Assembly (NCBI GenBank): GCA_964617875.1
Contig: CAZUAI010000006.1
Location: forward strand, 23,102-87,101
Length of the DNA stretch: 64,000 nt
Origin: an uncultured Planctomycetales bacterium
GTDB taxonomy: Bacteria; Planctomycetota; Phycisphaerae; UBA1845; PWPN01
Direction of reading: 5' to 3'
Below are positions 18,839 through 42,479 of this stretch, in pieces. The notes below the pieces were generated by a model. That model made no database searches and was not told the origin of the DNA. It worked only from the letters and a program-made list of their open reading frames with translations. Position 1 is the stretch's first letter. Each line of letters opens with the position of its first letter. A program made the position numbers and the translations under genes.

Positions 18839-20173
18839 TCAGCCCCCGGCCGACTTCGCCGTCGTGGTCGTCGGCGCGGTTTCGCCGCCGGTCTCGATCG
18901 TGACAATGCAGGGGCAGCCTTCCGGCAAGCCGTAGCCGCCCTGGACCGCGACCAGATCGCCCGGCGACAGCCCCTTCGTAATCTGAACGCGCTCGCGGGT
19001 CTGCACACCCACGGCGACTTCGGTCTCGTACGCCTTGCTGTCCCTTACGACGGTGACGACCGGCGTTCCGTCGCGATCGGCGATTGCGGCGATGGGGATG
19101 ACCAGCGCGTCCGGAACGGCCGGAAGCCACACGCGAACCTGGCACGCGAGGCCCGGGCGCAGATCGCCGGTGTCGTTGGCCACGGAAGCGAAGGCCTCCA
19201 CGTTGCCGGTCTGCAGATCCGCCTGCTTGCTGAGGCGGCTGACGGTGCCCTTGAACACCCGGCCCGGCAAGGCCGTGGCGCGAACGTCTACGGATGCCCC
19301 GGCCCGCACACGGGACAGATGGGCGGCAGGAATCTGGACGCGGGCGAAGAGCGTGGACAGATCGGCGAGGGTTCCGAGCTTCGTGAGCGGATCGATGGAC
19401 ATTCCCTGCCGTGCGAAGAGTTCCGTGACCACCCCGTCGAAGGGGCTCGTCAACCGGTGAAGCTGTACCGTCAGGTCGGCCGACGCGAGGTCCGCCCGGA
19501 CGGCGGCCAGCTTGGCCTCGGCTTCCGCGATCTCCTCGGGTCGGGTGCCGGCCTCCAGCAACCTGAGCCGGGCGGCGAAGGCGGCGGATTCCGCCTCGGC
19601 CGCCTGGAGTTCGGCCTTCACGCGCTCGAACTGCACGTCCGCCATTTCCTGCTTCTCGTGCAGGGCCTTCATCGCGTCGATCTTCAGCCGCATGGCCTGG
19701 GTCACCGTCTCGGCCTTGCGGGCGTCCTGTCGGGCCGCCTCGATCTCTTCGGGCCGCGGCCCCCGTTTCAGACGGGCCAGAACCGACTGGGCCTCCTCGA
19801 CCGCCGCACGGGCCTTGGCCCGCTGGGCTTCGGCGATTCTGTCATCGAGCCGGAGGATCTCCTCCGTCTTGTGAACCGCCTGGCCCTCGACCACGGAAAC
19901 GGTCCGCACCTGCCCGGCCACCTGGGCGGTCAGGATGGCGACCCGCTCGGGTATCGCCTCCAATACCCCGACCAGATCGATCGAGGGCTGCAGGGTCTCG
20001 ACCGTGGCCGCGGCCGCGCGAACGGGCACCGGGGTTGCCGACGCGGCCTCTTCCGCCGATCCCTCCGTTTGCTTCTGCTTGCAGCCGGCAAGGCCGCCGA
20101 TCATGACGGCCAGAAGCAGACTCAGGAGGCGAACGCCGACCTGGCGAAACGACGACTTCACGTGCTCATTCAT
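18839..20173 (-). CDS. efflux RND periplasmic adaptor (MFP)
   Basis: ATG 20173-20171 overlaps the RND stop (ATGA). Lipoprotein-like N-terminus (LLAVMIGGLAGC), a coiled-coil hairpin and beta-barrel motifs (LTSPFDGVVTEL). Confidence 0.85.
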   Translation of the reverse strand: MNEHVKSSFRQVGVRLLSLLLAVMIGGLAGCKQKQTEGSAEEAASATPVPVRAAAATVETLQPSIDLVGVLEAIPERVAILTAQVAGQVRTVSVVEGQAVHKTEEILRLDDRIAEAQRAKARAAVEEAQSVLARLKRGPRPEEIEAARQDARKAETVTQAMRLKIDAMKALHEKQEMADVQFERVKAELQAAEAESAAFAARLRLLEAGTRPEEIAEAEAKLAAVRADLASADLTVQLHRLTSPFDGVVTELFARQGMSIDPLTKLGTLADLSTLFARVQIPAAHLSRVRAGASVDVRATALPGRVFKGTVSRLSKQADLQTGNVEAFASVANDTGDLRPGLACQVRVWLPAVPDALVIPIAAIADRDGTPVVTVVRDSKAYETEVAVGVQTRERVQITKGLSPGDLVAVQGGYGLPEGCPCIVTIETGGETAPTTTTAKSAGG

Positions 20174-23100
20174 TGCTTGCTCCAGGGCATTCCACTGCGG
20201 GGTTCCGCATGGGCGGCCGCCACCGACATGCCGGCGGCGGCCGGCGATCCGGCCCGCCCGAACAGCCTCGTGGCGATGTAGTAGAACACGGGCGTGGCGA
20301 CCAACGAAAGGGCCAACGATATACACAACGCGCCGATGACGCCGACGGCGAGCGGTTGAAGCATCTGGGCTCCCGTGCCCACGCCATACGCCAACGGCAA
20401 CAGACCCAGGAATGTGGTCATCGAAGTCATGAGAACCGGCCGGAGGCGGCGCCGCCCCGACTGCACAAGGGCTTCGGAAAGCGGCAGGCCGCGCGCCCTG
20501 AGATGCTCGACGAAGTCCAGCATCAGGATTCCGTTCTTGGCGACGATGCCGACCCCGATGATCGCTCCGAGGAACGACACGATATTGAAGGAGATGCCGG
20601 TGATCCACAGGGCCGCGGTGACGCCCGAGAGAGCGAGAACCGCTCCGGCCACGATCGCCAGGGGCTGAATGATGGAGCGGAACTCGAGGAGCAATACCGC
20701 ATACACGAGCAGGACCGCCACGATGAGCACGATGGTCAGGTTCCGGAAGGACTCCTGCTGCTGCTGGTACAGGCCCCCGTATTCGATGGAGGCGTCGGAT
20801 GGAAGCTTCAGTGTCTCGGCCAGCCGGGCCCTGATCGCCGCCACGCCGCTGCCGAGATCCCGACCGGCAAAGCGGGCCGAGACCGCCGTGCACTGCCGCA
20901 GGTCTTCGCGGCGCATTTCGAGCAGCCCGGGGTGGTGGCTGACATCCGCCACATCGCCCAGCGTCACGCGCGCGCCGTTGGGCGACCGGATCGGAAGAAG
21001 GCTGATCGCCGCTTCGCGGTCCTGGCCCTCGCGTGCGAGCAGGACCCGAATGCCCAGCGTGCGGTCGCCCTGCAGTGCGTAGGAAGAGACCGTGCCCAGC
21101 AGTCCGGTTTCGATCGCGGCGCCGATCTGATCCACCGTGAGGCCCGCGCGGGCCGCTTCTTCGTTACGAACCCGGAAGCTCAGTGACGGACCGGCGACCA
21201 CCAGTCCGTTGTTGACATCGACGATGCCCGGGATCTTTTCGATGGTCTCCGCGATCTCGGCCGCTTTCTGTTTCACGAGGGCGGTATTGGTCGAGAATAT
21301 CTTGATCTCGATCGGCTTGGGCGACCAGGTCAGGTCACCGATCAGGTCGCTGAGCACGCCGGGGAACTCTGTGTGGAGCGCCGGCTCGGCCGCCTGGATC
21401 TTCCCGCGAAGCTCGTCGATCACCTCTTCCGTGCTGCGTTTCCGGTCCGGCCGCAGCTTCACCAGGAAGTCCCCGGTGTTCGGCTCGGCGATCGCCAGGG
21501 CCAGACGGGCACCCGTGCGCCGCGAGAAGCTCTCGACCTCGGGGGCGCCGGCAAGGATCTGCTCCACGTGACGCAGCATCCGGTCGGTTTCGGAGAGGCT
21601 TGTTCCCGGCCGGGAGAAGTAGTCCAGCACGAACGCCCCCTCGTCCTGTTTCGGCAGGAAATCGGTTTCGACCTGGAAGTACAGGGCGATTCCGCCGGCA
21701 ATGACCAGGACGATCACCGCAATCGAGACGCCCGGATGACGGAGCGCGCGGCGGACGGTCCATTCGTACCCGCCAATCAGCCTCCGGAGGATGGGCCCTC
21801 CCTGTTCGAGTTCGTCCTGCGTGGGACCGGAACGGGGTCGAATCAGCAGCGCCGCCAGCGTGGGCGTCAGCGTGACGGCGAGCAGGAGCGACCCGAGCAG
21901 CGAGATCACCATGGTCATGGCGAGCGCCCGGAAGAACACGCCCGGCACGCCGTCCAGATAGGCCAGCGGGATGAAGACCACGACGGGGGTAAGCGTGCTG
22001 CCGATGAGCGGCAGGCCGAGTTCATGAATGGCGACACGGACGGCCTGGCGTGGCGGAATGCCTGCGCAGATCTTCGCATGGATGGTCTCCACGACGACGA
22101 TGGCGTCGTCGATGACCAGCCCGACCGCCGCGGCAATGCCGCCCAGGGTCATGAGGTTGAAGCTCATCCGGAAGATCCGCATGCCCACCAGGGCCATCAG
22201 GATCGTCACGGGAATGGCCAGGGCGGTCACCACGGTCGTCGCGGTGTTCCGAAGGAACAGGTACAGCACGATGATCGAGAGCGCCAGGCCGAAGATGATG
22301 CTCTCCCAGACGCTGCCGACGGCCTCCCGGACGAAGAGCGACTGATCGTAGAAGAAGGCCATCCGCATGTCCGGCGGCAGATCACGCTTCAGCGCCCGCA
22401 TTTCGTCCTTCAGGGCGTCGGCGATGGCCACGGTGTTGCCGTCGGGCTGGCTGCGGATGTTCAGCAGGACGGCGGCCACGCCGTCGGCCGTGACGATGTT
22501 GAACTGGGGAGCCGCCCCGGCCCGAACGGTGGCAACGTCGCGGACGCGAACCGGCGACGCTCCCGCCGACGTGACGACGACATCGCCGATCTCCTCCGGC
22601 GTACTGACCCGGCCATCGACCAGTGTCAGGTAGAGCTGATGCTTCTCTTCGTGCAACCCGGCCGCGGTGAACTTGTTGGTCCTGGCCAGCGCGTCGCTGA
22701 CCTGCTCCAGGCTGAGGTGGTAGGCCTCCAGCCGCGCGGGGTCCACAACCACGTGGTATTCGGGCTCACGGCCTCCCACCAGATCCACGCGTGCCACGCC
22801 CCGGATTCGCAGGAAGCGCGGCTTGATCTGGTAGCGCGCCGCCTCCCACAAGTCCGTGATGCTTCGGGTCTTGCTCGTGAGACTGATGCCGATGATCGGA
22901 AACGCCGAGAACGTCAGGCGATGCACCGTGGTTTCGGCGGTTGCCGGCAAGGTGCTGCGGATCTGGGACAGGCGGCTCAACACATACAACTCCGCCTGGA
23001 TCATGTCGGTTCGCCAGGTGAAGAACACGTTGACTTCGGCGGAGCCGCGTCCGGTCGAGGATCGGATGTTGACCGCGCCGGGGATGTCCTTCATGGCCTC

Positions 23101-23361
23101 TTCGATCGGCCGCGTGATCGTCGCCATCATTTCGTCGGCCGGCATGACGCCGTTGTCGATCAGGATGACCACCCGCGGGAAGTCCGTCTGGGGAAACACC
23201 GAGGAGGGCATCCGGTACGCGCAGTAGGCGCCGCCAAGGCACAAGACGATCGTCAGGAAGAGGATGGCCTTGCGATGCCGCACGACGAAACCATCGTCGG
23301 CCGGCGCCGGAACATGCCCTTTGTCGGTCACGCCATGTTGGGAAGTACTCTGTCCTGTCAC
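20170..23361 (-). CDS. RND efflux permease (AcrB/CzcA superfamily)
   Basis: 1063 aa with 12-TM plus two large periplasmic loops. TM4 motif GLVIDDAIVVVE. GTG start. Confidence 0.9.
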   Translation of the reverse strand: MTGQSTSQHGVTDKGHVPAPADDGFVVRHRKAILFLTIVLCLGGAYCAYRMPSSVFPQTDFPRVVILIDNGVMPADEMMATITRPIEEAMKDIPGAVNIRSSTGRGSAEVNVFFTWRTDMIQAELYVLSRLSQIRSTLPATAETTVHRLTFSAFPIIGISLTSKTRSITDLWEAARYQIKPRFLRIRGVARVDLVGGREPEYHVVVDPARLEAYHLSLEQVSDALARTNKFTAAGLHEEKHQLYLTLVDGRVSTPEEIGDVVVTSAGASPVRVRDVATVRAGAAPQFNIVTADGVAAVLLNIRSQPDGNTVAIADALKDEMRALKRDLPPDMRMAFFYDQSLFVREAVGSVWESIIFGLALSIIVLYLFLRNTATTVVTALAIPVTILMALVGMRIFRMSFNLMTLGGIAAAVGLVIDDAIVVVETIHAKICAGIPPRQAVRVAIHELGLPLIGSTLTPVVVFIPLAYLDGVPGVFFRALAMTMVISLLGSLLLAVTLTPTLAALLIRPRSGPTQDELEQGGPILRRLIGGYEWTVRRALRHPGVSIAVIVLVIAGGIALYFQVETDFLPKQDEGAFVLDYFSRPGTSLSETDRMLRHVEQILAGAPEVESFSRRTGARLALAIAEPNTGDFLVKLRPDRKRSTEEVIDELRGKIQAAEPALHTEFPGVLSDLIGDLTWSPKPIEIKIFSTNTALVKQKAAEIAETIEKIPGIVDVNNGLVVAGPSLSFRVRNEEAARAGLTVDQIGAAIETGLLGTVSSYALQGDRTLGIRVLLAREGQDREAAISLLPIRSPNGARVTLGDVADVSHHPGLLEMRREDLRQCTAVSARFAGRDLGSGVAAIRARLAETLKLPSDASIEYGGLYQQQQESFRNLTIVLIVAVLLVYAVLLLEFRSIIQPLAIVAGAVLALSGVTAALWITGISFNIVSFLGAIIGVGIVAKNGILMLDFVEHLRARGLPLSEALVQSGRRRLRPVLMTSMTTFLGLLPLAYGVGTGAQMLQPLAVGVIGALCISLALSLVATPVFYYIATRLFGRAGSPAAAGMSVAAAHAEPRSGMPWSKQ

Positions 23362-23373
23362 GGATCACCGGCC

Positions 23374-23553
23374 TCAAAAAAAGTACGCCGCCAGAACCTG
23401 CCGCGCGAAGTCGCCGGCGAACACGACCAGCGATTGGGCCGTCGAATCCAGAGACAGCTGCGCCGCCTCTTCCTGACAGCCGACCAGCCCCGGCAATGCG
23501 ACCGCACAACCCATCATCGCCAGGCGATACCAATGGTGATGAGTCCTCTTCAT
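23374..23553 (-). CDS. small lipoprotein (59 aa) inside the efflux operon
   Basis: ATG 23553-23551 overlaps the OMF stop (ATGA). MKRTHHHWYRLAMMGCAVALPGLVGC gives a signal peptide with lipobox LVGC. Its stop lies 12 nt before the RND start. Confidence 0.5.
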   Translation of the reverse strand: MKRTHHHWYRLAMMGCAVALPGLVGCQEEAAQLSLDSTAQSLVVFAGDFARQVLAAYFF

Positions 23554-25130
23554 GGCTGGTTCCCGTCTCCTTCTGACCGTGTGGCCGGAGCCGAAGTCGG
23601 TTGCGTGGCCGACATCGGGGGCAGACGGCCGCCGACGGCTCGCTCCAGCTCGGCCATCGCAATGGCGTAATCGCGCCACACCCCGACATAGGCCTGGCGC
23701 TGAACGATCAGCGACTTCTGGGCGTCAATCAGTACGAGGATGTCCTTCTCGCCGGCCCGATACGTCCGCCGGGCGGATTCCACGTTTTCGTCGGCCTGAG
23801 GCAACGCCTGATCCCGATAGAACCGCACCTGTTCGTCGGCGATTCGTGCGACGATGATGGCGTCCTGAACCTGCCGCGCGACGGAGTCCAGCAGCGTTTC
23901 GTAGTCCTTGCGTTGCTGCTCCGCCTTGTACCCGGCCCTGGCGATCTGCGCCTGATTCTGGTCCCAGATCGGGAGCGTGATCTGCAGGGAAGGACCGAGC
24001 AGCGAATCCACAATCGCCCGCCGCTCCGCATCGCGCTGGGCCCTGGACTGAATGGATGGCGCGGTGAGCCGGCCGTTCGCCACGGACTCCCGGGCCGTGT
24101 CGGCGAGGACGTTGCGCCCCGGCAGCGCCTTGCGGTCGGGCCGCTCCCACTCCACGCCCGCCGCCACGCTGGGAAAAACCTTGAGATACTGCTGCCGGAC
24201 TTCATCTTCCGCGGCCTGGACCCGCAGTGCGGCAGCGCGGGCATCCAGCCGTTCGGTCATGGCGAAGAGGAGCAAGGCCCGCTCGTCCTGGCCAAGCGGA
24301 AACGCCGTCGGCAGATTGTCTCGCAGGGTCCACGGCTTCTCCCAACGGCTCAAGCCCAGCGTGTTCGCGAGGGCTGTTTCGGCCAGGCGCCGCTGCCGTT
24401 GAACGTCCATCTGCTGCAGCCTGGTTTCCAGCAGACTTGTCCGTACGAGGTTGACATCGAGCTTGCCGGTCTCGCCGGCGTTGAACCGATCCTGGGCGAG
24501 CTGGAGCGACTTTTCCACCAGGGCGACGTTCTCGTTCGCAATCGCCTCCGCCTGCTGAAGCGCCAGAAGCCGGTAGGTCTGGGACTTGGTGTCCGCCGCC
24601 AGGTCCACGGCCTGCTGCACGACCTTCAGGATCGTCTGCTCCAACTGTGCTTCGGCGATCTTCTTGCGGACCGGGATCTGCCAGAGGTCCACCAGTTCCT
24701 GCCCGAAACCCATGGTCAGCTTTGTCCGCCCGCCCCCTTCGGGAAACTGAGCCACGAGCGAGAACGATGGATTGGTCAGCAGGCCCGCCTGAACCAGGTC
24801 GGCGCGGGATGCGCCGATTTCCTGAAAGGCGGACTGCAGCGCGGGGCTCTTCAGCAGGGCCAGTCGGACGGCTTCATCGACGGTCAGCCCGTCGGCCAGC
24901 AGTGCGTCCAGCTTGTCCTTCACAAGGGCGTCGGCCGAGGGTTCGTACACGTCGGGCGTGCCCGTCCGCTCCGTGACCGACTGCGACGCCCGGCGGAAAT
25001 CCTGCGCGGGATCAACGGCCGCGCAGCCGATGGCCAGCATGGGAATGGAGATCGTGCAGACGGCAACGAGCGCGATCCGGCCGGCGCCGGGACGATTCTT
25101 CAATGTCCTAATCATGGTTGGCGCGATCAA
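23550..25130 (-). CDS. TolC-family outer-membrane efflux protein
   Basis: Signal/lipobox-like N-terminus (MLAIGCAAV) and two tandem OEP-type helical repeats. An alternative start lies at 25115. Confidence 0.85.
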   Translation of the reverse strand: MIAPTMIRTLKNRPGAGRIALVAVCTISIPMLAIGCAAVDPAQDFRRASQSVTERTGTPDVYEPSADALVKDKLDALLADGLTVDEAVRLALLKSPALQSAFQEIGASRADLVQAGLLTNPSFSLVAQFPEGGGRTKLTMGFGQELVDLWQIPVRKKIAEAQLEQTILKVVQQAVDLAADTKSQTYRLLALQQAEAIANENVALVEKSLQLAQDRFNAGETGKLDVNLVRTSLLETRLQQMDVQRQRRLAETALANTLGLSRWEKPWTLRDNLPTAFPLGQDERALLLFAMTERLDARAAALRVQAAEDEVRQQYLKVFPSVAAGVEWERPDRKALPGRNVLADTARESVANGRLTAPSIQSRAQRDAERRAIVDSLLGPSLQITLPIWDQNQAQIARAGYKAEQQRKDYETLLDSVARQVQDAIIVARIADEQVRFYRDQALPQADENVESARRTYRAGEKDILVLIDAQKSLIVQRQAYVGVWRDYAIAMAELERAVGGRLPPMSATQPTSAPATRSEGDGNQP

Positions 25131-26343
25131 CTCGTCCTCCTGCCAGATACAGCATGAAGCCTGCTCCGGCGATCATCAGAACCAAGGCGTACATGACGCC
25201 GAACTTGATGCCGAAGACCGTCCACAGCCAGCCCACCAGGATGCTGCTGATCAGATCGCCCATGCCGGTCACCACGGCCAGCGCCCCGAACCCGCTGCCC
25301 CGGATGCTTGCGGGCAGGAGTTCGGCCGCGACGGCGTCCTCGACGGCCTCATACAGGCCGACGCCGGTGCCGCCGAGCGCGAACATGAGCGCCAGGCCGA
25401 TGTAGCTGTCGACGCCCGCCATCATGCAGACGGCCGCCAGGGCCGCGGCCAGATAACCGGCCACGAGAAGCATCCGCTTGTTCGTGCGATCCGCCATCCA
25501 TCCGCCGAGGTACGACCACGAGGCGTACAGCACGTTGTGCAGCGTGTAACCGGCCACGGAGAGGGTGGCGGCTTCGGCGGGTCCGATCCTGGGGGAAAGA
25601 ACCGTCACCGTATACAGGATGTAGAAGGTGTCGGCAAAATCGCCCAGGCCGAACAGGCCGACGGCGCCGAGGAACTCCTTGAATCGTGAGCCGAAGCCAC
25701 CGAAGCTCTTGAGGAAAGGGGTGCTGACCGGCGTGCGGTCGGTCCGCTCGCGGACGAGGAATGCGATCGCGAGGACCGCCACGATCGCCGGGAAGACGGA
25801 AAGCAGGATTACGCTGCGATGAGTGAGCCCCGCTCGCAAGAGGAACAGGACGGCCACCGGCGCCGCGATGGCACCGGTCGTATCCATCGCCCGCTCCAGC
25901 CCGAAGGCCCGGCCGTAGGTGGCCGGCGTCACGGCGTCGGCGAGCAACGCCTTTCGCGCCGGGGTGCGCAGGCCGCGTGAGACCCACGCCAGGACCCGGC
26001 CGCCCAGCACCACGAACCAGTTGCCTGCCAGGGCGATCACCACCGGGGAGAACGCCATGAAGCCGTAACCGCCGGCACAGAGGACCTTCCGGCGGCGGAG
26101 CCGATCCGCCAGCCAGCCGCCGTAGAGTTTCGCGAGGCTCGAGAAGCCGTCGGCGAAGCCCTCGATCGTCCCCAGGGCCCCGGCGGCAGCGCCCATGGAG
26201 GCCAGGAAGGCCGGCAGCGTGGACGTCACAGCCTCATGGCTCATGTCGCTGAACAGCGACGCAAGGCCGATGCCCACGACAGTCCGATTCAGCCAATGTA
26301 TGCCGGAACCGCGCGCCGTCCTGTCAGCGGCTGGATGACTCAT
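25108..26343 (-). CDS. MFS transporter
   Basis: ATG 26343-26341 overlaps the upstream stop (ATGA). 12 TM helices and an MFS motif-A-like GWLADRLRRRK. Confidence 0.8.
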   Translation of the reverse strand: MSHPAADRTARGSGIHWLNRTVVGIGLASLFSDMSHEAVTSTLPAFLASMGAAAGALGTIEGFADGFSSLAKLYGGWLADRLRRRKVLCAGGYGFMAFSPVVIALAGNWFVVLGGRVLAWVSRGLRTPARKALLADAVTPATYGRAFGLERAMDTTGAIAAPVAVLFLLRAGLTHRSVILLSVFPAIVAVLAIAFLVRERTDRTPVSTPFLKSFGGFGSRFKEFLGAVGLFGLGDFADTFYILYTVTVLSPRIGPAEAATLSVAGYTLHNVLYASWSYLGGWMADRTNKRMLLVAGYLAAALAAVCMMAGVDSYIGLALMFALGGTGVGLYEAVEDAVAAELLPASIRGSGFGALAVVTGMGDLISSILVGWLWTVFGIKFGVMYALVLMIAGAGFMLYLAGGRVDRANHD

Positions 26344-27614
26344 TTGCGTTGTATTGGATCGGGTCGCGGACATGAGGGCAAGGCGGCCTCCGCTTCCTCC
26401 ACGCGCAGCCATCCCGCGTGCAGGCACCACGCCATCGTCAGCCCCATGACAAACCCAAGGGCCACGTTGTTCAACGCCAGGCAGGCGGCGGCGGTCAGCA
26501 GCATGGCGAACGCATCGGTCCGGCGGGTCTGATCGCGACACACGAGCGAAAGCTCCATGCCGCTGAATGCCAGCATGACCCCGAGAATGCTGGCGGGGAA
26601 GGCACTGCACAGGGTCATGAGCGATGCGCCGACGAGTATGGCAAGGGTGATCTTCACGGCGCCAAGGAACAGGATTGCACCGTTGGTTCGTGCTCCAAAC
26701 CGATACTGTCCGGCCAGTCCGCCGGCTCCGTGGCACATCGGCATGCCGCCAAACCAGCAGGCCACGAGATTCATGATGCCCACGGAAACGGCGACCTTGC
26801 GCGGCGCGGCCTGTCGTCCCGGGAACAGGTCCGCCGACAAGGCGGTTACCGCGATGACCGAGTTCAACGTCGTGAGGGGAATCTGCGGCAGGGCGACCTT
26901 CGGAAAGGCCGCGACGAAGTCCGCCCGGGCCGGCGGTTGCCAACCCGGCCATGTGAAACCGATGCCGAGCGACCCCAACACCTCCGGATGTGTCCATATC
27001 GCGACGGCCAGGCCCGCCGCAAACAGGAGAAGCGCCGCCGGGATCGTTCGCGAGAAGAAGAGCAGGAGGACCAGCAGCGCGGCCAGCAGGCCCGTCAGGC
27101 AGCTATCACCCGCGAACCACGTGCCGGTGCCGGCGACCATCTGGATGCCCTTGATCATCAGCGACAGGCCCAGCGCGAGCTGCAAGCCGCGGACTACGCT
27201 GCGGGGCACGACCCGGTTCAGCCAGTCGATCAGCCCGGTCAGCCCGAGCAGCAGCACCACCAGGCTGACTGTCGCGCCGGCGGCCAGGATCTGCGGCACG
27301 GTCAGCCCCTGGGTGATCGCCACGGTTGCGATGGCCTTCATGGGCTGCACGGCCATCGGGATGCTGAAGGTCAGGCCGGTGACGACGTTAAACAACCCGG
27401 AGAAGAACAACGCCGAGGCGAAGTTGAGCCCGTTCTGCGCCGCCATGCCGACAAGCAGCGGCAGGAACGTGCCCAGGTCGCCGAGGCTGCCGGCAATCTC
27501 ATGCCGGTCGATTCGCGCGCACCCCAACGGCTGGAGAAACCGCGGCCATCCGGGCCGCGCCGTCTCAATCGCCGCGCGGGCCTCTACCGCACTGGACAAG
27601 AAGGCTGCCGCCAT
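26340..27614 (-). CDS. MOT1/SulP-related putative sulfate/molybdate-type anion transporter
   Basis: LGDLGTFLPLLVGMAAQNGLNFASALFFSGLFNVVTGLTFSIPMAVQPMKAIA is typical of the molybdate-transporter (MFS_MOT1) family. Polytopic membrane protein. First ATG at 27614. Confidence 0.7.
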   Translation of the reverse strand: MAAAFLSSAVEARAAIETARPGWPRFLQPLGCARIDRHEIAGSLGDLGTFLPLLVGMAAQNGLNFASALFFSGLFNVVTGLTFSIPMAVQPMKAIATVAITQGLTVPQILAAGATVSLVVLLLGLTGLIDWLNRVVPRSVVRGLQLALGLSLMIKGIQMVAGTGTWFAGDSCLTGLLAALLVLLLFFSRTIPAALLLFAAGLAVAIWTHPEVLGSLGIGFTWPGWQPPARADFVAAFPKVALPQIPLTTLNSVIAVTALSADLFPGRQAAPRKVAVSVGIMNLVACWFGGMPMCHGAGGLAGQYRFGARTNGAILFLGAVKITLAILVGASLMTLCSAFPASILGVMLAFSGMELSLVCRDQTRRTDAFAMLLTAAACLALNNVALGFVMGLTMAWCLHAGWLRVEEAEAALPSCPRPDPIQRK

Positions 27615-27691
27615 GACACCGCAGCCAGTCCACGACAAGCCTGCTCAACGTCGCCGCAATCACGGCCGCTCCGGGGGCTTGTCCGTCCCCG

Positions 27692-28978
27692 TCAGGCCTT
27701 GCCGGCAAACGGATTTCCGAAAACGGCCGCCTTGCCCAGTTCCGCCTCGATCTCCAGCAGCCGGTTGTACTTGGCGATCCGCTCGCTGCGGCACGCGGAA
27801 CCGGTCTTGATCTGGCCGCCGCCCATCGCCACGGCGAAGTCGGCCATGAAGGCATCTTCGGTCTCGCCCGAGCGGTGCGACACGACGAAGCCCCAGCCGG
27901 CCTTGCGGCACATATCGATGGCCTCGATGGTCTCGGTCACCGTGCCGATCTGATTCAGCTTGATCAGCACGGCGTTGGTGGACTGTTCCTTGATGCCCCG
28001 CTCGATGAACTTCGTATTCGTGACGTACAGGTCGTCGCCGACGATCTGGATGCGCGAGCCCAGCGCGGCCGTGTGCTGTTTGAACCCGGCCCAGTCGTTC
28101 TCGGCCAGGCCGTCTTCGATCGAGACGATCGGGTACTTCTCCACCCAGCCCTTGTACAACGCCGTCATCTCGGCGCTGTTCTTCCTGCCCTGGCCCGACT
28201 TCGAAAGCTGGTAGGCCCCGTCCTCGAAGAAGGAGCTGGCCGCCGGGTCGAGCGCGATGGCCACGTCCTTGCCGGGTTTGTAGCCGGCGGCCTGGATGGC
28301 CTCCACGATTACCTCGCAGGCCTCGTCGTTGCTCTTGAGGTTGGGCGCGAACCCGCCCTCGTCGCCGACGCTTGTCGCGTAGCCTTTCTTGTGCAGGATG
28401 GACTTGAGGGCGTGGAAGGTCTCCGCGCCGTAGCGAAGGGCCTCGGCGAACGTCGGGGCGCCGACGGGCATGCACATGAACTCCTGGAAGTCCACGCTGT
28501 TGTCGGCGTGCTTGCCGCCGTTCAGGATGTTCATCATGGGCACCGGGATGCGGACCGCGCCCGTTCCGCCGAGGTAGGCGTAAAGGGGAAGATCCGCCGC
28601 CATCGCGGCCGCGCGGGCCACCGCCATGGACACGCCGAGGATGGCGTTCGCCCCCAGCTTGCCCTTGTTGGGCGTGCCGTCCAGTTCGATCATCAGGCGA
28701 TCGATCTGGGCCTGGCGGTTCGGAGCCATGCCCACGATCTTCGGGGCAATGAGGTCATTGACGTTGGCGACGGCCTTGAGCACGCCCTTGCCGCCGTAGC
28801 GCTTCTTGTCGCCGTCCCGCAGTTCGACGGCCTCGTTCTCGCCGGTGGAGGCGCCGGACGGGACACAGGCCGCGGCCGTGATCCCGTTGTCCAGGGTCAC
28901 CGAGACCCGCAACGTCGGATTGCCGCGAGAATCCAGAATCTCCAGGGCCCGTACCGATGCGATATTGCTGTTCATCAT
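27692..28978 (-). CDS. eno: enolase (phosphopyruvate hydratase)
   Basis: [25 protein letters not shown]..., SHRSGETED and [10 protein letters not shown] motifs. Strong AAGGAG SD lies 3-6 nt before the ATGATG. Confidence 0.95.
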
Positions 28979-29407
28979 TAACTCCTTTCTTGAATCATGA
29001 CGCATTGTCATTGTGCGTAAACCAACAGATGCCGCAAGAGCCGCCTTGCGGATCATCGGATTCGGATGAAGCCTGAGTCCGGCCAGACACCGCCGGGCGG
29101 CGGCGGTTCCGATCCGGCCCAGGGCGGCGATGGCCGCCTGCGCCACGAACACCGCCTGCATGTCCCGCGTGTCCCGGGTCCGTTCGACCAGTTCGATCAA
29201 CGGCGCGACGGCCCGGCGTTCCTTCCGCTGCCCCAGCAGGAGGGCGCATCGCTCGGGCGTGGTGGGCTCCGGATGGCGCAGCGAGACCATGAGCTTCTCC
29301 GGGTAGCTGAGCGAGCCCCAGTATTCCCTCAGGTTCAGGCCGCAGCGAGGGCAGCATTCGAGGTCCTCGGCAAAGTCGTCCCAGCAGCGGGGACAGAAGA
29401 ACCGCAT
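28979..29407 (-). CDS. zinc-ribbon + HEAT-repeat ORF with no stop codon before eno
   Basis: [26 protein letters not shown] (CxxC-N11-CxxC) followed by HEAT-like repeats ([31 protein letters not shown]). ATG 29407-29405 lies 1 nt after the upstream stop. The frame continues uninterrupted into eno. Confidence 0.6.
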
Positions 29408-29408
29408 C

Positions 29409-30119
29409 TCAGTCCATTCTCGCCCGTTGAAGCATCCGGGCCAGGTCCTCCCGAATCGGGGCCTCCACCGGCAACGCACCGATGGCCTCCAGGGCGGGGG
29501 TCCGGTCGTATTCCGCCCGCCGGCTCTGAACCGCGCCGTCCTCCCACAGCGCATACGGCGCCCGCGCATCACCATCCAGCGGCTGACCGAGCGAGCCGGG
29601 ATTGACGATCTGCAGGGTTCCGTGGCGGCGGATCAGCGGGAGGTGCGTGTGGCCCGCCACGAGTAGGTCGGCCAGAACCCTGCCGGCGACGTCGTCGAGG
29701 ATCGCATCGCATCCCTGGGGGGTCAGGCGGTAGTCGTACAGAGGGTCGATGGGCGTCGCATGCGTCACGGCGAACGGAACGCCGCCGATTTCGCATCGCA
29801 GGCTCAGCGGAAGCCGGCCCAGCCACGCCAGGTCGTCCGGGCCCAGCTGCGCGCGGGTCCAGTCCCGCATGGCCAGGGCCAGGGGCTGCTTGGCCGGGCT
29901 GGCCTTGGGATCGGCCAGGAAGGCGACGGCATGGTCATGGTTGCCGCGCACGGCGATCGCCTCGTGCTGCCGAAGCCACGCCACCGCAGCCCCGGGGGCC
30001 GGACCGTAGTTCACCGTGTCGCCGGCGCAGATGACGTGGTCGAACCGCCCGGCGTCGCGTTCCACGGCGGCGAGGGCCCAGGGGTTGGCATGGATATCAG
30101 AAAGCATCAGAATCCGCAT
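29409..30119 (-). CDS. metallophosphoesterase (YfcE/MJ0936-like)
   Basis: [29 protein letters not shown] and VAGHTH metal-binding motifs. The ORF-track start at 30188 is less likely. Confidence 0.8.
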
Positions 30120-30240
30120 CGCCCAAACCATCTCCGAACCCGTGACCCATGGCGTCATCGTCGCCGTCGGCCCCCGGCCGGGACGCATCGCGTCCGCAGT
30201 ATATCAAGGGGGACCGGGCGGCTGGGCATACCCGTACACG

Positions 30241-30271
30241 AACCCGGCCGGTTTTCGCTTCCGGTGGGGTT
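30241..30271 (-). terminator. terminator-like element of the riboswitch 1 expression platform
   Basis: Minus strand reads AACCCCACCGG-aagcgaaaa-CCGGCCGGGUU. Its 5' arm can alternatively pair with GGGUGGGGU just downstream of the aptamer. The tail is not U-rich. Confidence 0.3.
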
Positions 30272-30318
30272 GCTTGCTGCCGCGCTCAGTCGGTGCGGAC
30301 CCCCACCCAGGACAGCGG

Positions 30319-30408
30319 GTAGGAGTCATCAGGCTCCCCGACGGGGAACCAATTCACGGCGGACTCCATCGCCCGCCGGATCTTAGCGTGAACGCTGTGG
30401 GGCCGCAA
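30319..30408 (-). promoter_or_regulatory. promoter + fluoride riboswitch (crcB motif), copy 1
   Basis: Minus strand reads TTGCGG (30408-30403), N17, TAAGAT (30385-30380), N6, then GGCGAUGGAGUCCGCC-GUGAAUUG-GUUCCCCgucgGGGGAGC-CUGAUGACUCCUAC (30373-30319). P1 is GGCG/CGCC, the pseudoknot is GGAGUC/GACUCC, with a P3 hairpin and the conserved CUGAUGA. Confidence 0.85.
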
Positions 30409-33317: not shown

Positions 33318-33432
33318 TTGCGGATCCCGACCAGATCACATAGAATCGGGTTGGCGATGGGGTTCGCCAGCGTCCCGACCCGCCGTGGCTCGGACCAACC
33401 GCCTGCCCGACGACAGGCTGATAACCCCTGCT
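33318..33432 (+). promoter_or_regulatory. promoter + fluoride riboswitch variant, copy 2
   Basis: TTGCGG (33318-33323), N17, TAGAAT (33341-33346), N6, then GGCGAUGGGGUUCGCC-[28-nt inserted hairpin GUCCCGA...UCGGAC]-AACCG-CCUGcccgacgaCAGG-CUGAUAACCCCUGC (33353-33432). The pseudoknot pair GGGGUU/AACCCC covaries relative to the other three copies. Confidence 0.7.
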
Positions 33433-35689: not shown

Positions 35690-37480
35690 TCAACCGGGCA
35701 GAAAGGCTGCCTCCGGGCGCCAGGGGAAACACAGACTCCGTTGGCCGACAAGCTGCGTCAATGCGCGTCGATGGGCCTCGGTCTCGTCGCGGTTTTCGAG
35801 GCTGCGCCGCAGGGCGTCGTGCTTTATCGCGAAGCTCTGCATGTCCTCGGCCAGCGCGCCGAGGTGTCGTGCGGCTTCCCGCAGCAGGAACCGGCGTGTT
35901 TCGCCGTCCGGCACCAAGACGATGAGAGGTGCCAGATGCCGCAGGCAGACGCCGGAAGACCGGGCATAAGCCTCGCGGCCTCCTGCATCGGCCAACAGGG
36001 TCGCCAGCCGCTGCGTGCCGTCGCGCTCGTGGTCCGCCAGCAGCCGGCAGACACGGCAGGCGGCCTGCCGGCCGGTGAGTTCGTCGAACGCGGCCTCCGG
36101 CCCGTTCTCGTTTGCCGCGAAAGCCGACAGGGCGGTCGTCCGTTTCTCCAGCAACGCGAAGTAGCCCACGCTCAGGCCCCGGGGCGAGGAGATGCCGGCG
36201 AGCTGCCAGGTGTGCAACGGGCAGAAGCCGCCCTCTTCGGCGAAGGACTGCTGAGCGGCTTCATCGGTCGCGAGAGCGTGCTGCCATCGTCGGAGGAAAT
36301 CGAAGGCCGCTTCGGTCAGGTGGTTGCAGACGGGGCAGGTTCCCGCACGGAGCGCGGCCACGATCTCCGATTCTTCGATGGGTTCGGCCGGTTTCGTCCG
36401 CGGCGTCGGCGATGAACACGGCGGACCTCCCCGCGCCGCGGCCGGAGGCGTCGGCGTCGCGTCAACCTGACCCGCGAGAATCCCCTCGCGCAGCCGTTGA
36501 ATGGCGGTTCGCCGCTCGACGGCTTCCGGGTGCTGCTGGCCTGCGATAAGTCCCTCGGCACGATCCAGGATCGCGGCCAGGAACGTCGTGGTCCGCTGGT
36601 CGGTCAGGAAATCCGCCAGCGCCGCCTCCAGGGCCGGAAGCCCGCTCTGTGCCAATCCGTGTGCGTCCCGCGCGGCTCGGGCCGCCAGCGCCGCCCGCGA
36701 CGACAGGGGAAACAGGGGCGGCCGCGCCGCGCCCATCCGACGGGAGAGATTGTCGCCGATGAACCGCAGGGCAGCCTCCCGCTCCGCGTTCGCCAGCAGG
36801 TCCATCTTGTTGACGACGAAGAAGACCTTGCGGACATGCGCGCGGAGGCGGTCCAGGAACTCCAGTTCCGTCGCGGCCAGCGGACCGTCGGCGCTGGTCA
36901 CGAACAGAACCGCATCGCACTGGGGGACGAAGGCATACGTCGTTGCGGTGTTCGCTTCGATGGCCGAGCCGATGCCGGGCGTATCCACGAACTCCAATCC
37001 ACGCCGCAGGAAGGGCGACGGGAACTCCACGTATACCGCCTTGATTCGCTTCCGGTTGGCCGGATTGCCCGTCTCCGTCACGTACTCGGGCAGCGCCGAA
37101 ATCGGGGCTTCGTCATCGAACGACCGGTTCTGACGGGAAATGACCAGCCGTTCCTCCGGACCGAACCGCAGGATGGTAATGGCGGACGTGAGCGGCAGGA
37201 TGCCCGTCGGCAGAAGCTCCCGGCCGACGATGGCGTTCATGAGCGAACTCTTGCCGCGTTTGAACTGGCCCACAACGGCCAGGGTGAAGCGGTCTTCGGC
37301 CAGCTTGACCATCAATTCATGGCAGGCGGCGACCCGGTCATCCCCGCCGTGCCGGCCGAGCCAATGGTCCAGGGCGCGAACCTGCCGTGCCACCGCCTGC
37401 CTGGCCCGCACGTAGGCCCTCAGACGCGACGAATCGGACTCGAGCGGGGACACCGCCGGACTCGTGGGCGACGGCATCAT
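35690..37480 (-). CDS. dynamin-like GTPase (DLP-B) with C-terminal double CxxC...CxxH module
   Basis: ATGA overlap with DLP-A. G1 VVGQFKRGKSSLMN, G3 FVDTPGIGS, G4 VVNKMDLL. The C-terminal 217 aa carry CPVC...CPLH and CRVC...CLRH. Confidence 0.8.
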   Translation of the reverse strand: MMPSPTSPAVSPLESDSSRLRAYVRARQAVARQVRALDHWLGRHGGDDRVAACHELMVKLAEDRFTLAVVGQFKRGKSSLMNAIVGRELLPTGILPLTSAITILRFGPEERLVISRQNRSFDDEAPISALPEYVTETGNPANRKRIKAVYVEFPSPFLRRGLEFVDTPGIGSAIEANTATTYAFVPQCDAVLFVTSADGPLAATELEFLDRLRAHVRKVFFVVNKMDLLANAEREAALRFIGDNLSRRMGAARPPLFPLSSRAALAARAARDAHGLAQSGLPALEAALADFLTDQRTTTFLAAILDRAEGLIAGQQHPEAVERRTAIQRLREGILAGQVDATPTPPAAARGGPPCSSPTPRTKPAEPIEESEIVAALRAGTCPVCNHLTEAAFDFLRRWQHALATDEAAQQSFAEEGGFCPLHTWQLAGISSPRGLSVGYFALLEKRTTALSAFAANENGPEAAFDELTGRQAACRVCRLLADHERDGTQRLATLLADAGGREAYARSSGVCLRHLAPLIVLVPDGETRRFLLREAARHLGALAEDMQSFAIKHDALRRSLENRDETEAHRRALTQLVGQRSLCFPWRPEAAFLPG

Positions 37481-39330
37481 CGCTGATCCTGTTCTCGGGC
37501 GGCCGTTGTCGCAAGACGCTCCTTGAGCCCCCGCAGGCCGGCGACCGCCGCCTCGAGCCGCGCGATTTCCGGGGCAACCGTCGCCGAGTCTTCCGTGCGA
37601 CGTCGTCGAGCGGCGCCAAGGGCCCGGCGAGTCGCTTCAATCGTCTGCCGAAGGCTGTCTTCCAGGGCGTCACGGAAGTCCTGGATGCTTGTCCTGAGAT
37701 TCTCCAGGGTACTCCATCGAAGATCTCCGATGTTGCGAGTCACGAGGTACTCCACCTGGTCCGCGAGTCGCCGCCGAATGCGGGAATGCCGCAAGCGCCG
37801 CGGAAGCACTCTGTCGATCCAGTCCGTGGGAATCGAGCCGGGTCCCTGAATCGCCCACTTGTGAACGCGCCAGCAGGGCTGTTCCACCTTCGCCAGGGCG
37901 ATCTCGCGGTGCTGCGGCTCATACGGAACGTCGAAGACCTTCGCAATGGAGGCGTGAACCGCGGCGACCAGTTCGGCCGCCCGGCGCTGATGGGGCCGCA
38001 GGGCCTCGTGCAGTTCGCGCTCGCAAAGCTGATGGGCGGCACCGAACTCCCGCTCGAAAAAACCGGGGATGGCCGCGGCAATGGCCTCGCGGGCGGTCTC
38101 CTCCGACCACCGGTTCCCGTCCCGAATCTCGCATTCGCGGAGGACTTTCGTGAAGAACTCGATGCTTCCGGGCAGCATCGCATCGGCGCGCATCTTGACG
38201 GCTTCCGCCAGACGCTGTTCGTCCCTGGCAAGGCGGTCGAGGGCCACGATGCGCCGTTCCTCGATTTCGGTCAGGCTGTTCTCGAAGCGACCGATGCGGT
38301 CGTCGAGGTCGGCCAGCGGCATCTGCAGGGACCGCAGAGTCAGTTCCAGGCGATGCTGGACATCGGCGAGAATGTCCCCCGCCTGGCGGGCCACCGCGCG
38401 GCTGAGCACGTCTTTCTTCTCGGTGAGCAGGAAGCTGACGATCTGCTCTTCGATCGCCGCCACGCCGCTCCGTTCCCAGGCGGCGTCATCCTGCCCCTGG
38501 CGAGCCGCCAGGCCCTGGCGGGCCGAGGCGCAGAAGATCGGCGGCGGCGAGGTGAACCCGACGTGCTCGCAGAGCGCCCGCTGGAGAAACCGTACGGCCT
38601 CGTCCCGCTCGGCCGCGTCGAGGTAATCCACCTTGTTCAGGATGAAGAACAGGCGGGCCAGTTTGCGGCGCGCGAGCTTGAGAAACTCCACCTCGACCTC
38701 GGTGATCGGCGGATCCGCGGACACCACGAACATCGCCGCATCGCACTGCGGGAGAAAGTTGACGGTCGCCTCGGTGTTGTGGCGAAAGGTCGAACCGATG
38801 CCGGGCGTATCGATCAGCGAGAGGCCCCGACGCAGCACCGGCGCGGGATACGCGGCTTCGATCAACCGGACCCCCAGGTGGTTGCGCGGGTTCGCGCTTT
38901 CGGCGACAAAACGCGCGAGGAAACCCGCCAGGGCCGCGGCGTCCGGCCCGAGGAGCCGCTCTTCCGGCTTCCCGTTTTCGAATACCACCCGGGCCGCCGG
39001 CTGCTCGCCGCCGTGCAGAAACGTCGGGATGGACGTGACCGGCACAACGGCGGCAGGCAGGACGGGGGCTCCCAGCAACGCATTGATCAACGTGCTCTTG
39101 CCGCGTTTGAACTGGCCGAGCACGGCCAGATGACAGCGTTCCTCCCGCAGACGTTCGTGCAGAGCGAGAATGCGATGCCGGTCGGCCCCGAATTCCTCGC
39201 CCATCGCCCCCACCTGACCGGCGGCTTCCTGCAGGAGGGTTGGCAGTTGGACGGACTCCGCGACATGCCGGGCCGTCGTCTCCGGCCGGTTGTCCGAATC
39301 CGCGTCGGCATGGAGGACGAAATCAGTCAT
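37477..39330 (-). CDS. dynamin-like GTPase (DLP-A)
   Basis: G1 VLGQFKRGKSTLIN, G3 LIDTPGIGS, G4 ILNKVDYL and a helical C-terminal half. The start overlaps the upstream TPR-like ORF by 8 nt. Confidence 0.8.
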   Translation of the reverse strand: MTDFVLHADADSDNRPETTARHVAESVQLPTLLQEAAGQVGAMGEEFGADRHRILALHERLREERCHLAVLGQFKRGKSTLINALLGAPVLPAAVVPVTSIPTFLHGGEQPAARVVFENGKPEERLLGPDAAALAGFLARFVAESANPRNHLGVRLIEAAYPAPVLRRGLSLIDTPGIGSTFRHNTEATVNFLPQCDAAMFVVSADPPITEVEVEFLKLARRKLARLFFILNKVDYLDAAERDEAVRFLQRALCEHVGFTSPPPIFCASARQGLAARQGQDDAAWERSGVAAIEEQIVSFLLTEKKDVLSRAVARQAGDILADVQHRLELTLRSLQMPLADLDDRIGRFENSLTEIEERRIVALDRLARDEQRLAEAVKMRADAMLPGSIEFFTKVLRECEIRDGNRWSEETAREAIAAAIPGFFEREFGAAHQLCERELHEALRPHQRRAAELVAAVHASIAKVFDVPYEPQHREIALAKVEQPCWRVHKWAIQGPGSIPTDWIDRVLPRRLRHSRIRRRLADQVEYLVTRNIGDLRWSTLENLRTSIQDFRDALEDSLRQTIEATRRALGAARRRRTEDSATVAPEIARLEAAVAGLRGLKERLATTAAREQDQR

Positions 39331-39751
39331 GGCACTCCGAATCTGTCGGGAAATCGGCGGGGACGGAATCCGCTTGCGTCATGCCGGCCGAATCTGCCTC
39401 CGGCTCAGGGGGCTCCTGCCCCGGCCAGAAGTGGCGCCACATGCGGCGAACTGTGGCATCGTCCCGGCGTTCGCGAAAGAGCTGGGCCAGCAGGGCGCGG
39501 GCTTCGTCCATGCGGTTCAGATGGGTCAACGCAACGGCCCAGTGAACCTTGAACGACGGCTCAAAGGGGTTTACGTATACGGCGCGTCGGAATTGGGACT
39601 CGGCCAGTTCGAAGGCCTCGCGCTGGAGGAAATAGCAACCCATATCGTCGCGGTCGTAGCCCAGATAGTGGCTGGGCCGCAGGACTTCCTCGCGGATGAT
39701 CTGCGGGTCGCGAGTGCGGTGTCGCCTTTTCGGCTCGTCCGGGAGGCTCAT
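39323..39751 (-). CDS. small TPR-like protein (142 aa), first gene of the DLP operon
   Basis: ATG 39751 (MSLPDEPKRRH) with GGAGG 13 nt upstream. One or two TPR-like units (AESQFRRAVYVNPFEPSFKVHWAVALTHLNRMDEARALL) and an acidic tail. Confidence 0.55.
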   Translation of the reverse strand: MSLPDEPKRRHRTRDPQIIREEVLRPSHYLGYDRDDMGCYFLQREAFELAESQFRRAVYVNPFEPSFKVHWAVALTHLNRMDEARALLAQLFRERRDDATVRRMWRHFWPGQEPPEPEADSAGMTQADSVPADFPTDSECHD

Positions 39752-39790
39752 GGTCCGCCATACCTCCGTGCCGCAGGCCGACGGCCTGCC

Positions 39791-39830
39791 AACAGAAAAC
39801 CCCACACAGGAATCGTCCTGGCGGGGTTCC
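39791..39830 (-). terminator. intrinsic-terminator-like element of the riboswitch 3 expression platform
   Basis: Minus strand reads GGAACCCCGCCAGG-acgauu-CCUGUGUGGGGUU followed by UUCUGUU, lying between the aptamer and the SD of the TPR-like ORF. Confidence 0.5.
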
Positions 39831-39864
39831 CGTTACACGATGGCCCCTACCCAGGTCGATTCGG

Positions 39865-39948
39865 GCAGGAGTCATCAGGTCGGCAGGACCGCTTAACGGC
39901 GGACTCCATCGCCATAGATATTTTAGGCCCGGCGGGCGTCGTGTGCAA
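39865..39948 (-). promoter_or_regulatory. promoter + fluoride riboswitch (crcB motif), copy 3
   Basis: Minus strand reads TTGCAC (39948-39943), N17, TAAAAT (39925-39920), N6, then GGCGAUGGAGUCCGCC-GUUAAGCG-GUCcugccGAC-CUGAUGACUCCUGC (39913-39865). Confidence 0.9.
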
Positions 39949-40314: not shown

Positions 40315-40317
40315 TCA

Positions 40318-40731: not shown

Positions 40732-40740
40732 GGTTACCTC

Positions 40741-42451: not shown

Positions 42452-42479
42452 CCAACGCTTCCTCGCATGCCGGTCCGCC

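Follow-up and report, generated by a model that had tools for sequence, protein, structure and literature searches.

A probable composite fluoride-stress operon with MFS and RND transporter genes behind a fluoride riboswitch in an uncultured planctomycete

A string of nine open reading frames (ORFs) lies behind a fluoride riboswitch, here called copy 1, in a 64,000-nucleotide stretch of DNA from an uncultured Planctomycetales bacterium (contig CAZUAI010000006.1), to which we refer as the window. We consider it probable that this region is a composite fluoride-induced operon, serving in fluoride stress and assembled from three modules. The first would consist of a fluoride ON-riboswitch, a YfcE-type metallophosphoesterase, a Zn-ribbon/HEAT protein and an extra enolase, and might provide spare copies of, or helpers for, Mg-dependent enzymes poisoned by fluoride. 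The second would be a major facilitator superfamily (MFS) transporter, whose gene normally comes after enolase in islands of this kind, with a MOT1-like transporter gene inserted ahead of it here. The third would be a self-contained envelope-pump cassette of four genes, encoding an outer-membrane factor (OMF), a dedicated lipoprotein, a resistance-nodulation-division (RND) pump and a periplasmic adaptor (membrane-fusion protein, MFP); in sister lineages this cassette is either headed by a fluoride riboswitch of its own or has a two-component system for a neighbour. Because homologues of both the MFS and the RND proteins sit directly behind their own Rfam-significant riboswitches elsewhere, it is credible that the two families are members of the fluoride regulon and candidate new parts of bacterial fluoride defence. 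Co-transcription of the whole string in the window appears likely.

All nine ORFs are encoded by the minus strand, from 30119 to 18839, with no opposite-strand gene among them. The first encodes the metallophosphoesterase (Metallophos_2; 30119..29409, 236 aa; PF12850, E 3e-23; TIGR00040, 63 bits against a cut-off of 56), whose frame is open from 30188, the domain and the homologues starting further in. It is followed, after a 1-nt gap, by an ORF of 143 codons in which profile searches recognised a Zn-ribbon (CPRC...CPRC) and HEAT_2 (29407..28979); this ORF continues in frame, without a stop codon between them, into the enolase (28978..27692, 428 aa; TIGR01060, 662 bits), which has its own ribosome-binding site, AAAGGAG, 5 nt ahead of ATGATG. 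The sole sizeable gap of the string, a spacer of 77 nt (27615..27691), precedes the gene of the MOT1-like protein, a putative sulfate/molybdate-type anion transporter (27614..26340, 424 aa; PF16983, E 5e-60). This gene shares an ATGA overlap (-4 nt) with the gene of the MFS transporter (26343..25108, 411 aa; MFS_1, by profile search). The TolC/NodT-type outer-membrane factor (OEP; two PF02321 repeats) ends at 23550 and is likely to start from the ATG at 25115, which opens a signal peptide (MIRTLKNR...LAIGC); the alternative is a TTG at 25130 preceded by AGGAGG, and both starts overlap the MFS stop, by 8 nt in the case of ATG and by 23 nt in the case of TTG. Overlaps of the ATGA type (-4 nt) also join TolC with the 59-aa lipoprotein (23553..23374, recognised as an ORF with the lipobox LVGC) and the RND pump with the MFP. 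A 12-nt gap lies between the lipoprotein and the RND pump (ACR_tran; 23361..20170, 1063 aa; PF00873, 795 bits), and the adaptor (20173..18839, 444 aa, lipobox LAGC; TIGR01730, 172 bits against a cut-off of 95) closes the string. Beyond it lies a convergent HslU-like gene, a plus-strand ORF ending at 18633 whose identity was judged by eye from its N-terminal sequence. This base-by-base reading matched every junction listed in the first-pass annotation, and the gene order given there was confirmed by profile searches and ORF reading, with an Rfam-significant aptamer at its head.

As gaps between the ORFs do not exceed 77 nt and four junctions overlap, one message probably spans the string as far as the pump genes; moreover, the overlap of the TolC start with the MFS stop leaves no intergenic room for a promoter ahead of the cassette. 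The earlier statement that no convincing terminator or promoter lies inside the string was checked by consensus scans. Six terminator-like sites were found, compared to 6.9 +/- 3.0 in shuffled sequence, and one promoter-like site compared to 1.0, so there is no excess of either, as far as scans based on an E. coli-type consensus can be applied to Planctomycetota, whose promoters are poorly described and may differ. Nor did the 77-nt spacer give a sign of an intrinsic terminator: it forms small hairpins without a U-tract, and its fold energy is at the level of shuffled sequence. A second or degenerate aptamer inside the string was not found even with the search filters off, and no other Rfam family reached its gathering score in the string region.

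Copy 1 of the riboswitch (RF01734) was placed at 30382..30313 of the minus strand by the Rfam covariance model, with 37.9 bits against a gathering score of 34, all of the model positions 1-64 being matched; the E-value is 6.5e-7 across the whole window and 1.2e-7 across the string region alone. It retains the conserved core GGCGAUGGAGU-CGCC ... CUGAUGACUCCUAC, and its core/pseudoknot-forming segments, GGCGAUGGNGU and CUGAUGACUCCUAC, equal the consensus in the Rfam alignment. As read from the alignment, the linker before P3 is off-consensus (AAUUGG vs AACCGCC) and P3 itself is kept (GGUUCCC/GGGAGCC). A purpose-built covariance model, R1, gave 65.3 bits, copy 1 itself being among the seeds of R1. 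The aptamer occupies a 5'-leader position, co-oriented with the genes, the start codon of the phosphoesterase lying 193 nt past its end. From a possible sigma-70-type promoter on the minus strand (30380..30408), which we read by eye as TTGCGG (30408..30403), a 17-nt spacer and TAAGAT (30385..30380), we infer that the transcript might start at the 5' edge of the aptamer. This candidate scores under the threshold of the consensus promoter scan; UAAGAU just ahead of the aptamer also occurs in the riboswitch leader of one of the sampled loci (L165; loci are numbered with the prefix L below).

The minimum-free-energy fold of the copy 1 leader contains a competing, anti-aptamer hairpin of 12 bp (30298..30327, minus strand), in which the 3' strand of the aptamer, GACUCCUACCCG, is paired with UGGGUGGGGGUC. 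Analogous competing hairpins are present in the leaders of L165, L164 and L172. The fold energy of the copy 1 leader does not differ from that of shuffled sequences (z = -0.7). A hairpin like this would suit an ON switch; as no U-tract follows it, the expression platform might be Rho-dependent, translational or of some other type. In the proposed mechanism, pairing of the aptamer's 3' strand with the downstream G-rich segment (30327..30298) would block expression when fluoride is absent, while in the presence of fluoride the aptamer pseudoknot would retain this strand and RNA polymerase would read through. One fluoride-induced polycistronic message would then probably reach the pump genes, its yield perhaps falling along its length.

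The association of the MFS family with fluoride riboswitches was assessed in 80 metagenomic loci, each built around a homologue of 43-85% identity; the closest homologues (85-88%) come from Phycisphaerae metagenome-assembled genomes. Covariance-model matches were obtained in 20 of the 80 loci, and 19 of these were confirmed by Rfam at the gathering score, the one in L142 having failed. Upstream sequence of 3 kb or more was available for 41 loci; of these, 14 have a co-oriented upstream riboswitch (L142 excluded), and about half lie among riboswitches or island genes such as enolase, phosphoesterase, dynamin-like GTPases, CrcB, DUF190, the Na+/H+ exchanger and the universal stress protein (Usp). 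An Rfam-significant aptamer lies directly in front of MFS, 90-240 nt before its start, in L106, L150, L151 and L154, and riboswitch-enolase-MFS strings are found in L145, L156 and L085. The adjacency of enolase and a following MFS gene recurs in L084, L085, L145, L156 and L170. Riboswitch linkage is shared by two MFS clades whose mutual identity is only about 45%. As a control, loci centred on the MOT1-like gene carry a fluoride riboswitch in 3 of 80 cases, compared to 19 of 80 for those centred on MFS.

A complete tripartite RND system is present in the window, with PF00873 matched from position 4 to 1019 of 1021, a TIGR01730 adaptor and the two PF02321 repeats; the closest RND homologues (94-96%) are again from Phycisphaerae metagenome-assembled genomes. 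We compared 13 related lineages, the window included, with RND identities of 74-96%; L083 was linked by its TolC gene only (73% identity), as its contig ends there. In three lineages the cassette has its own riboswitch: in L165 (RND 86%) it lies about 130 nt before the OMF gene (Rfam, 48.4 bits), and in L164 (75%, 46.4 bits) and L172 (74%, 38.4 bits) it directly precedes an RND-adaptor-OMF arrangement, so that riboswitch-headed RND cassettes occur in two gene orders. Since a multi-megabase genome holds only a few such riboswitches, three of them directly upstream among 13 lineages is, by a rough estimate and not as a computed statistic, far beyond chance. In four lineages (the window, L170, L169 and L083) the cassette stands behind enolase/MFS, and the MFS-to-TolC junction seen in the window is found also in L170, L083 and, as a remnant, L169. 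Altogether, a link to a riboswitch or to the enolase/MFS string is seen in 7 of the 13 lineages, while 6 are unlinked. Among the latter, L161 (96%), L162/L163 (89%) and L171 (75%) carry the cassette beside a two-component system composed of an OmpR-type response regulator and a HisKA kinase; in L166, L167 and L168 the cassette is accompanied by no riboswitch and by no two-component system.

Comparison with L161 is informative as to what lies ahead of the pump genes in the window. The window TolC shares 87% identity with its L161 counterpart (84% with that of L162), and nucleotide homology to L161 starts about 160 nt inside TolC, which means that the upstream region of L161 is absent from the window. 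Together with the TolC start overlapping the MFS stop, this indicates that no separate upstream regulatory region survives there. We also considered that a fluoride island had come to separate a two-component system from the RND genes it controls, the window having a regulator/kinase pair of its own at 42734-44870. This was rejected on the low identity of the regulator and kinase, about 48% and 32-39%, respectively, to the pair of L161 and L162, compared to 84-87% for the cassette proteins; in addition, the window pair is followed by an adaptor-like gene of its own.

The 59-aa lipoprotein matched no Pfam or NCBIfam family. It has homologues of 39-63 aa with a conserved C-terminal motif, FxGDFARQxLAAYxF, and, in most cases, a lipoprotein signal. 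They are encoded between the outer-membrane factor and the pump in L161, L162, L165, L168, L169 and L170, as well as in L167, where the version is 39 aa long; in L166 the homologue is upstream of a PEMT-like gene that precedes the RND gene. L169 (RND 94%), in which the cassette is intact, looks like a decaying copy of the window string: only the last ~165 nt of MFS are left and, at 604-1209, a truncated enolase is fused to an ORF with an SLFN/AlbA_2 domain. A PEMT/ICMT-like methyltransferase gene adjoins riboswitch-less cassettes (L161 4369-5079, L162 1936-2547, L166 5711-6325 and L167 7498-8106). In L162 a group II intron D1-D4 domain (RF02005, 164 bits) was noted at 1561-1780 (minus strand), near the two-component system that flanks the cassette.

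The substrate of the pump is not suggested by its sequence. The RND protein scores under both the multidrug and the CusA/CzcA cut-offs of NCBIfam (535 bits vs 701 for TIGR00914), and it is without the CzcA-type signature DFG..DGA..VEN; its transmembrane stretch reads GLVIDDAIVVVE, which we take to resemble the AcrB/MdtB-like acidic pair. It is roughly equidistant from the solved structures of MdtB (344 bits), ZneA (314), CusA (308) and AcrB (266). The MFS protein is closest to NorA, with a weak match (E 2e-6) that gives no substrate clue, and a sequence search of the MOT1-like protein against solved structures gave no match. Inference of substrates from solved structures was thus uninformative for all three transporters.

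The first-pass annotation had regarded the anion transporter, the MFS transporter and the RND system alike as unusual additions to the regulon. For MFS and RND this idea gained support from their riboswitch-headed homologues; for the MOT1-like gene it did not. The protein itself is a clear member of PF16983 (201 bits vs a Pfam gathering score of 30, in two stretches), and its clade is unusually conserved, being shared, at 65-80% identity, by Planctomycetota, Acidobacteriota, Myxococcota and other phyla, the sources labelling the homologues 'putative sulfate/molybdate transporter'. A tested substrate is not known for any bacterial protein of the clade. The MOT1 survey covered 80 genome loci with up to 10 kb of flank on each side (1.16 Mb in total). 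It employed a covariance model built from eight Rfam-confirmed fluoride aptamers together with Rfam, in place of a regular-expression aptamer scan, which had missed two real copies. A fluoride riboswitch was found within 10 kb in 3 of the 80 loci (L008, L026 and L047) and directly upstream in none, which rules out the MOT1-like protein as a regular member of the fluoride regulon. In L008 a MOT1-MFS pair diverges from a unit running from a riboswitch to enolase and phosphoesterase, and in L026 such a pair is upstream of the riboswitch. In L047 the MOT1-like gene is at the tail of an 8-kb co-oriented string, which starts with a riboswitch and a hydrogenlyase-like complex, and it precedes a chromate transporter gene.

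The slot between enolase and MFS is variable: L083 has a sulfatase there and L082 a dynamin-like gene, and it is empty in L084 and in L170, where, with an RND 94% identical to that of the window, MFS directly follows enolase without MOT1. From such comparisons of gene order, the MOT1-like gene of the window is best described as a real but lineage-specific insert between enolase and MFS. Like the MOT1/PF16983 family, which is distant to SulP, the window protein has two PF16983 repeats; unlike it, the window clade is repeatedly paired with an MFS gene. A MOT1-like gene followed by MFS recurs in L008, L010, L026 and L028 and, for a distant MOT1 clade, in L111, L112, L113 and L115. The pair in L008, L010 and L026 adjoins a fluoride riboswitch or dynamin-like island genes, not being downstream of the riboswitch. 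Two weak covariance-model matches (~16 bits, E 0.02-0.03), at L037 2133-2205 (plus; a Planctomycetota bin) and L040 2174-2246 (plus; Pirellula sp.), occupy matching positions, about 7.8 kb upstream of MOT1, in these two related loci and may represent a degenerate aptamer or noise.

The proximal part of the string is the most conventional one. Enolase and phosphoesterase are classic cargo of the fluoride riboswitch, in agreement with what the earlier annotation had said of enolase and phosphatases, and a riboswitch, phosphoesterase, sometimes the Zn-ribbon/HEAT gene, enolase and MFS co-occur in many metagenomic loci. Phosphoesterase homologues are beside enolase in the riboswitch-led strings of L083, L082, L086, L094 and L008. 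The Zn-ribbon/HEAT protein recurs just upstream of enolase in the fluoride islands of L082 (2265-2654), L085 (2649-2996) and L086 (3621-3971), and its ORF directly follows phosphoesterase in the window, L082 and L086. A Zn-ribbon/HEAT-enolase fusion was rejected as a conserved architecture, for L082, L085 and L086 have a stop codon and separate ORFs; the in-frame continuation is hence either lineage-specific or a sequencing error. The continuity seen in the window could thus reflect either a recent loss of the stop codon, giving a fusion together with an internally initiated enolase, or an error of sequencing.

All nine ORFs occur together in no other sampled locus. Conservation is seen at the level of sub-strings, namely riboswitch-phosphoesterase-(Zn-ribbon/HEAT)-enolase, enolase-MFS, MFS-TolC and TolC-lipoprotein-RND-MFP, and the nine-gene string is best seen as a lineage-specific mosaic whose modules are conserved elsewhere. 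One could suspect that such a mosaic is an artefact of assembly or binning that joined unrelated pieces, given that the lineage is uncultured and that the closest homologues are in metagenome-assembled genomes. We find this extremely improbable. The enolase-MOT1-MFS junctions recur in the independent assemblies L173 and L174 (short Logan contigs from other sequencing runs), and the order enolase-MFS-TolC-lipoprotein-RND-MFP recurs in the independent assembly L170 and is further supported, independently, by L169 and L083. As the junctions are reproduced in separate assemblies, the string is not an assembly chimera. Third-codon-position G+C is also uniformly high, 0.82-0.87, in the six string ORFs scored (MFS and MFP were not among them).

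Several observations weigh against the string being one fluoride-induced operon. Of the four fluoride aptamers that Rfam recognises in the window, copy 1 has the lowest score, and no U-tract follows its competing hairpin (30327..30298). The gene order is not conserved as a nine-gene unit, and the 13 RND lineages are a small sample of phylogenetically related members. The closest relatives of the RND pump (96% and 89%) are found by a two-component system without a riboswitch, which shows that the cassette can come under other control, and it might be driven by a promoter within the coding sequence of MFS. The MOT1-like gene, if a recent insert, could have brought its own promoter in the 77-nt gap. 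Finally, in Enterobacter cloacae FRM, RND and MFP genes beside a fluoride-riboswitch operon were not fluoride-induced, with changes of 1.4-fold and 0.9-fold (PMC5533749).

These points could be accommodated if the riboswitch controlled only the proximal genes (phosphoesterase, Zn-ribbon/HEAT and enolase), the transporters being passengers on internal, fluoride-independent promoters located in the 77-nt gap or within coding sequence; the tight packing would then reflect compact, rearranged DNA in a variable island. The varying content of the enolase-MFS slot, the rarity of riboswitch linkage for MOT1, the two-component neighbourhood of the nearest RND relatives and the behaviour of the E. cloacae pump (PMC5533749) all speak for this alternative, and a consensus scan may overlook Planctomycetota promoters, poorly described as they are. 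On the other hand, both the MFS and the RND family have members elsewhere that directly follow fluoride riboswitches of their own, the TolC start overlaps the MFS stop with three further ATGA overlaps in the string, and L170 and L169 have kept the MFS-TolC junction. We regard control of the proximal genes alone as rather unlikely, though it is the alternative to be taken most seriously. It seems a good deal less probable that MFS, alone or with RND, is a new fluoride exporter which replaces or supplements CrcB/Fluc and CLC-F. The riboswitch linkage of the MFS family is strong and ancient, and its nearest solved structure, however weak the match, is that of an exporter (NorA). Yet MFS shares an operon or island with crcB (L106, L152, L130, L146 and the copy 4 operon of the window), and in L106, L152 and L130 it belongs to the same operon or string; this argues against a simple substitute for the fluoride channel and for a role that is complementary rather than redundant. 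Many members of the MFS family are, besides, without a riboswitch, and transport of small inorganic anions is not known for RND pumps.

If the string is a composite fluoride-stress operon, as we favour, the transporters would presumably act on something other than bulk cytoplasmic fluoride, the latter being handled by CrcB. The nine-ORF string is itself without crcB, which lies about 12 kb away behind riboswitch copy 4, and bulk export of fluoride by the pumps is less likely because CrcB is encoded in the same island. Our best guess is that the pumps might remove a toxic species potentiated by fluoride, for example a cation of a metal or its complex with fluoride, or relieve envelope stress. 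A bolder proposal is that the RND pump with its 59-aa lipoprotein, found in Phycisphaerae and other Planctomycetota, would form together with MFS an unrecognised envelope-spanning arm of the fluoride response, in which at least one of the transporters moves fluoride, a metal-fluoride or a fluoride-dependent toxic metal species. This we put forward as speculation that is more doubtful than plausible at present.

The string would be a fluoride-riboswitch operon of a familiar type with new cargo. Genes reported behind fluoride riboswitches include crcB/Fluc, eriC-F/CLC-F, Na+/H+ antiporters, enolase, pyrophosphatase, HAD phosphatases and formate hydrogen lyase (PMC11139923, PMC2864571), to which reviews add chorismate mutase, K+ and Cl- transporter genes and mutS (PMC11139923, PMC2864571, PMC7266159); operons that contain fluoride exporters are also enriched in divalent-cation transporters (PMC11139923, PMC2864571, PMC7266159). 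The window string shares with these canonical units the aptamer class RF01734, its 5'-leader position and the logic of relieving enzyme inhibition and adjusting ion homeostasis. It differs in that the gene classes of the reviews omit RND tripartite pumps, the MFS family of the window, MOT1-like proteins and dynamin-like GTPases. Our full-text literature search returned no link of the fluoride riboswitch with RND, major facilitator, dynamin or Planctomycetes, although the supplementary gene lists of Baker et al. (2012), whose canonical units the reviews summarise, may hold some. The operon of E. cloacae FRM (PMC5533749) is similar in being a riboswitch-headed multi-gene operon with an extra enolase and a phosphoryl-transfer enzyme, in its association with a divalent-cation P-type ATPase gene, and in having RND and MFP genes immediately adjacent. 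It is different in that the window string is without crcB, its phosphoesterase is of the YfcE type whereas the E. cloacae enzyme is a pyrophosphatase, the window pump genes translationally overlap the upstream gene, and orthologous cassettes elsewhere are headed by riboswitches.

The other frame of comparison is that of RND efflux operons governed by two-component systems, such as BaeSR-MdtABC and CusRS-CusCFBA. These are likewise three-part pumps, the small protein between the pump genes of the window is reminiscent of CusF, and several orthologous cassettes also stand beside an OmpR-type regulator and a HisKA kinase. Among solved structures, MdtB comes nearest to the window RND, at 344 bits. 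The differences are the order of the window cassette (OMF, lipoprotein, RND, MFP) and its small protein, a 59-aa lipoprotein with a conserved C-terminal motif of its own. In addition, some lineages of the window cassette use a fluoride riboswitch instead of a two-component system, and the locus thus provides a case of regulatory swapping, in which the same cassette is under one kind of control in some lineages and under the other in others.

The exporter families Fluc/CrcB and CLC-F were recognised via riboswitch-gene associations. The same logic now points to two further transporter families, the MFS clade and the RND cassette with its small lipoprotein, and it implicates also several accessory genes that are not mentioned with fluoride in the searchable literature. 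If the pumps are fluoride-induced, they would be testable candidates for how fluoride, or its complexes with metals, is dealt with beyond the inner membrane in bacteria that possess an outer one; should the envelope-spanning arm turn out to be real, it would add a new transporter class to fluoride resistance beside Fluc, CLC-F and FEX. This is of relevance to fluoride toxicity and to the engineering of microbes for the synthesis or breakdown of organofluorines, for which stress from fluoride is an acknowledged bottleneck (PMC11139923).

The rest of the island in the window comprises three further riboswitch units and their neighbours. Copy 4 heads a minus-strand unit of crcB, a Na+/H+ exchanger, Usp and DUF190 (39964-42623), from which an OmpR-type response regulator, a kinase-like ORF and an adaptor-like gene (42734-46401) diverge. 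Behind copy 3 come a TPR protein and two dynamin-like GTPases (39922..35690, minus strand), and behind copy 2 a third dynamin-like GTPase (33344-35677, plus strand). Dynamin-like GTPases (Pfam Dynamin_N) are directly behind fluoride riboswitches also in L026, L164, L086, L088, L094 and L154, and such genes are next to MFS in 16 of the 80 MFS loci; a full-text literature search for 'fluoride riboswitch' with 'dynamin' returned no papers. Diverging from copy 1 is the gene of an MgtA-like P-type cation ATPase (30631-33258, plus strand). P-type ATPase genes about 28% identical to it adjoin enolase/MFS genes in L008 (2794-5433) and L087 (928-3096), and their presence there agrees with published reports that divalent-cation transporters are over-represented in the vicinity of fluoride genes.

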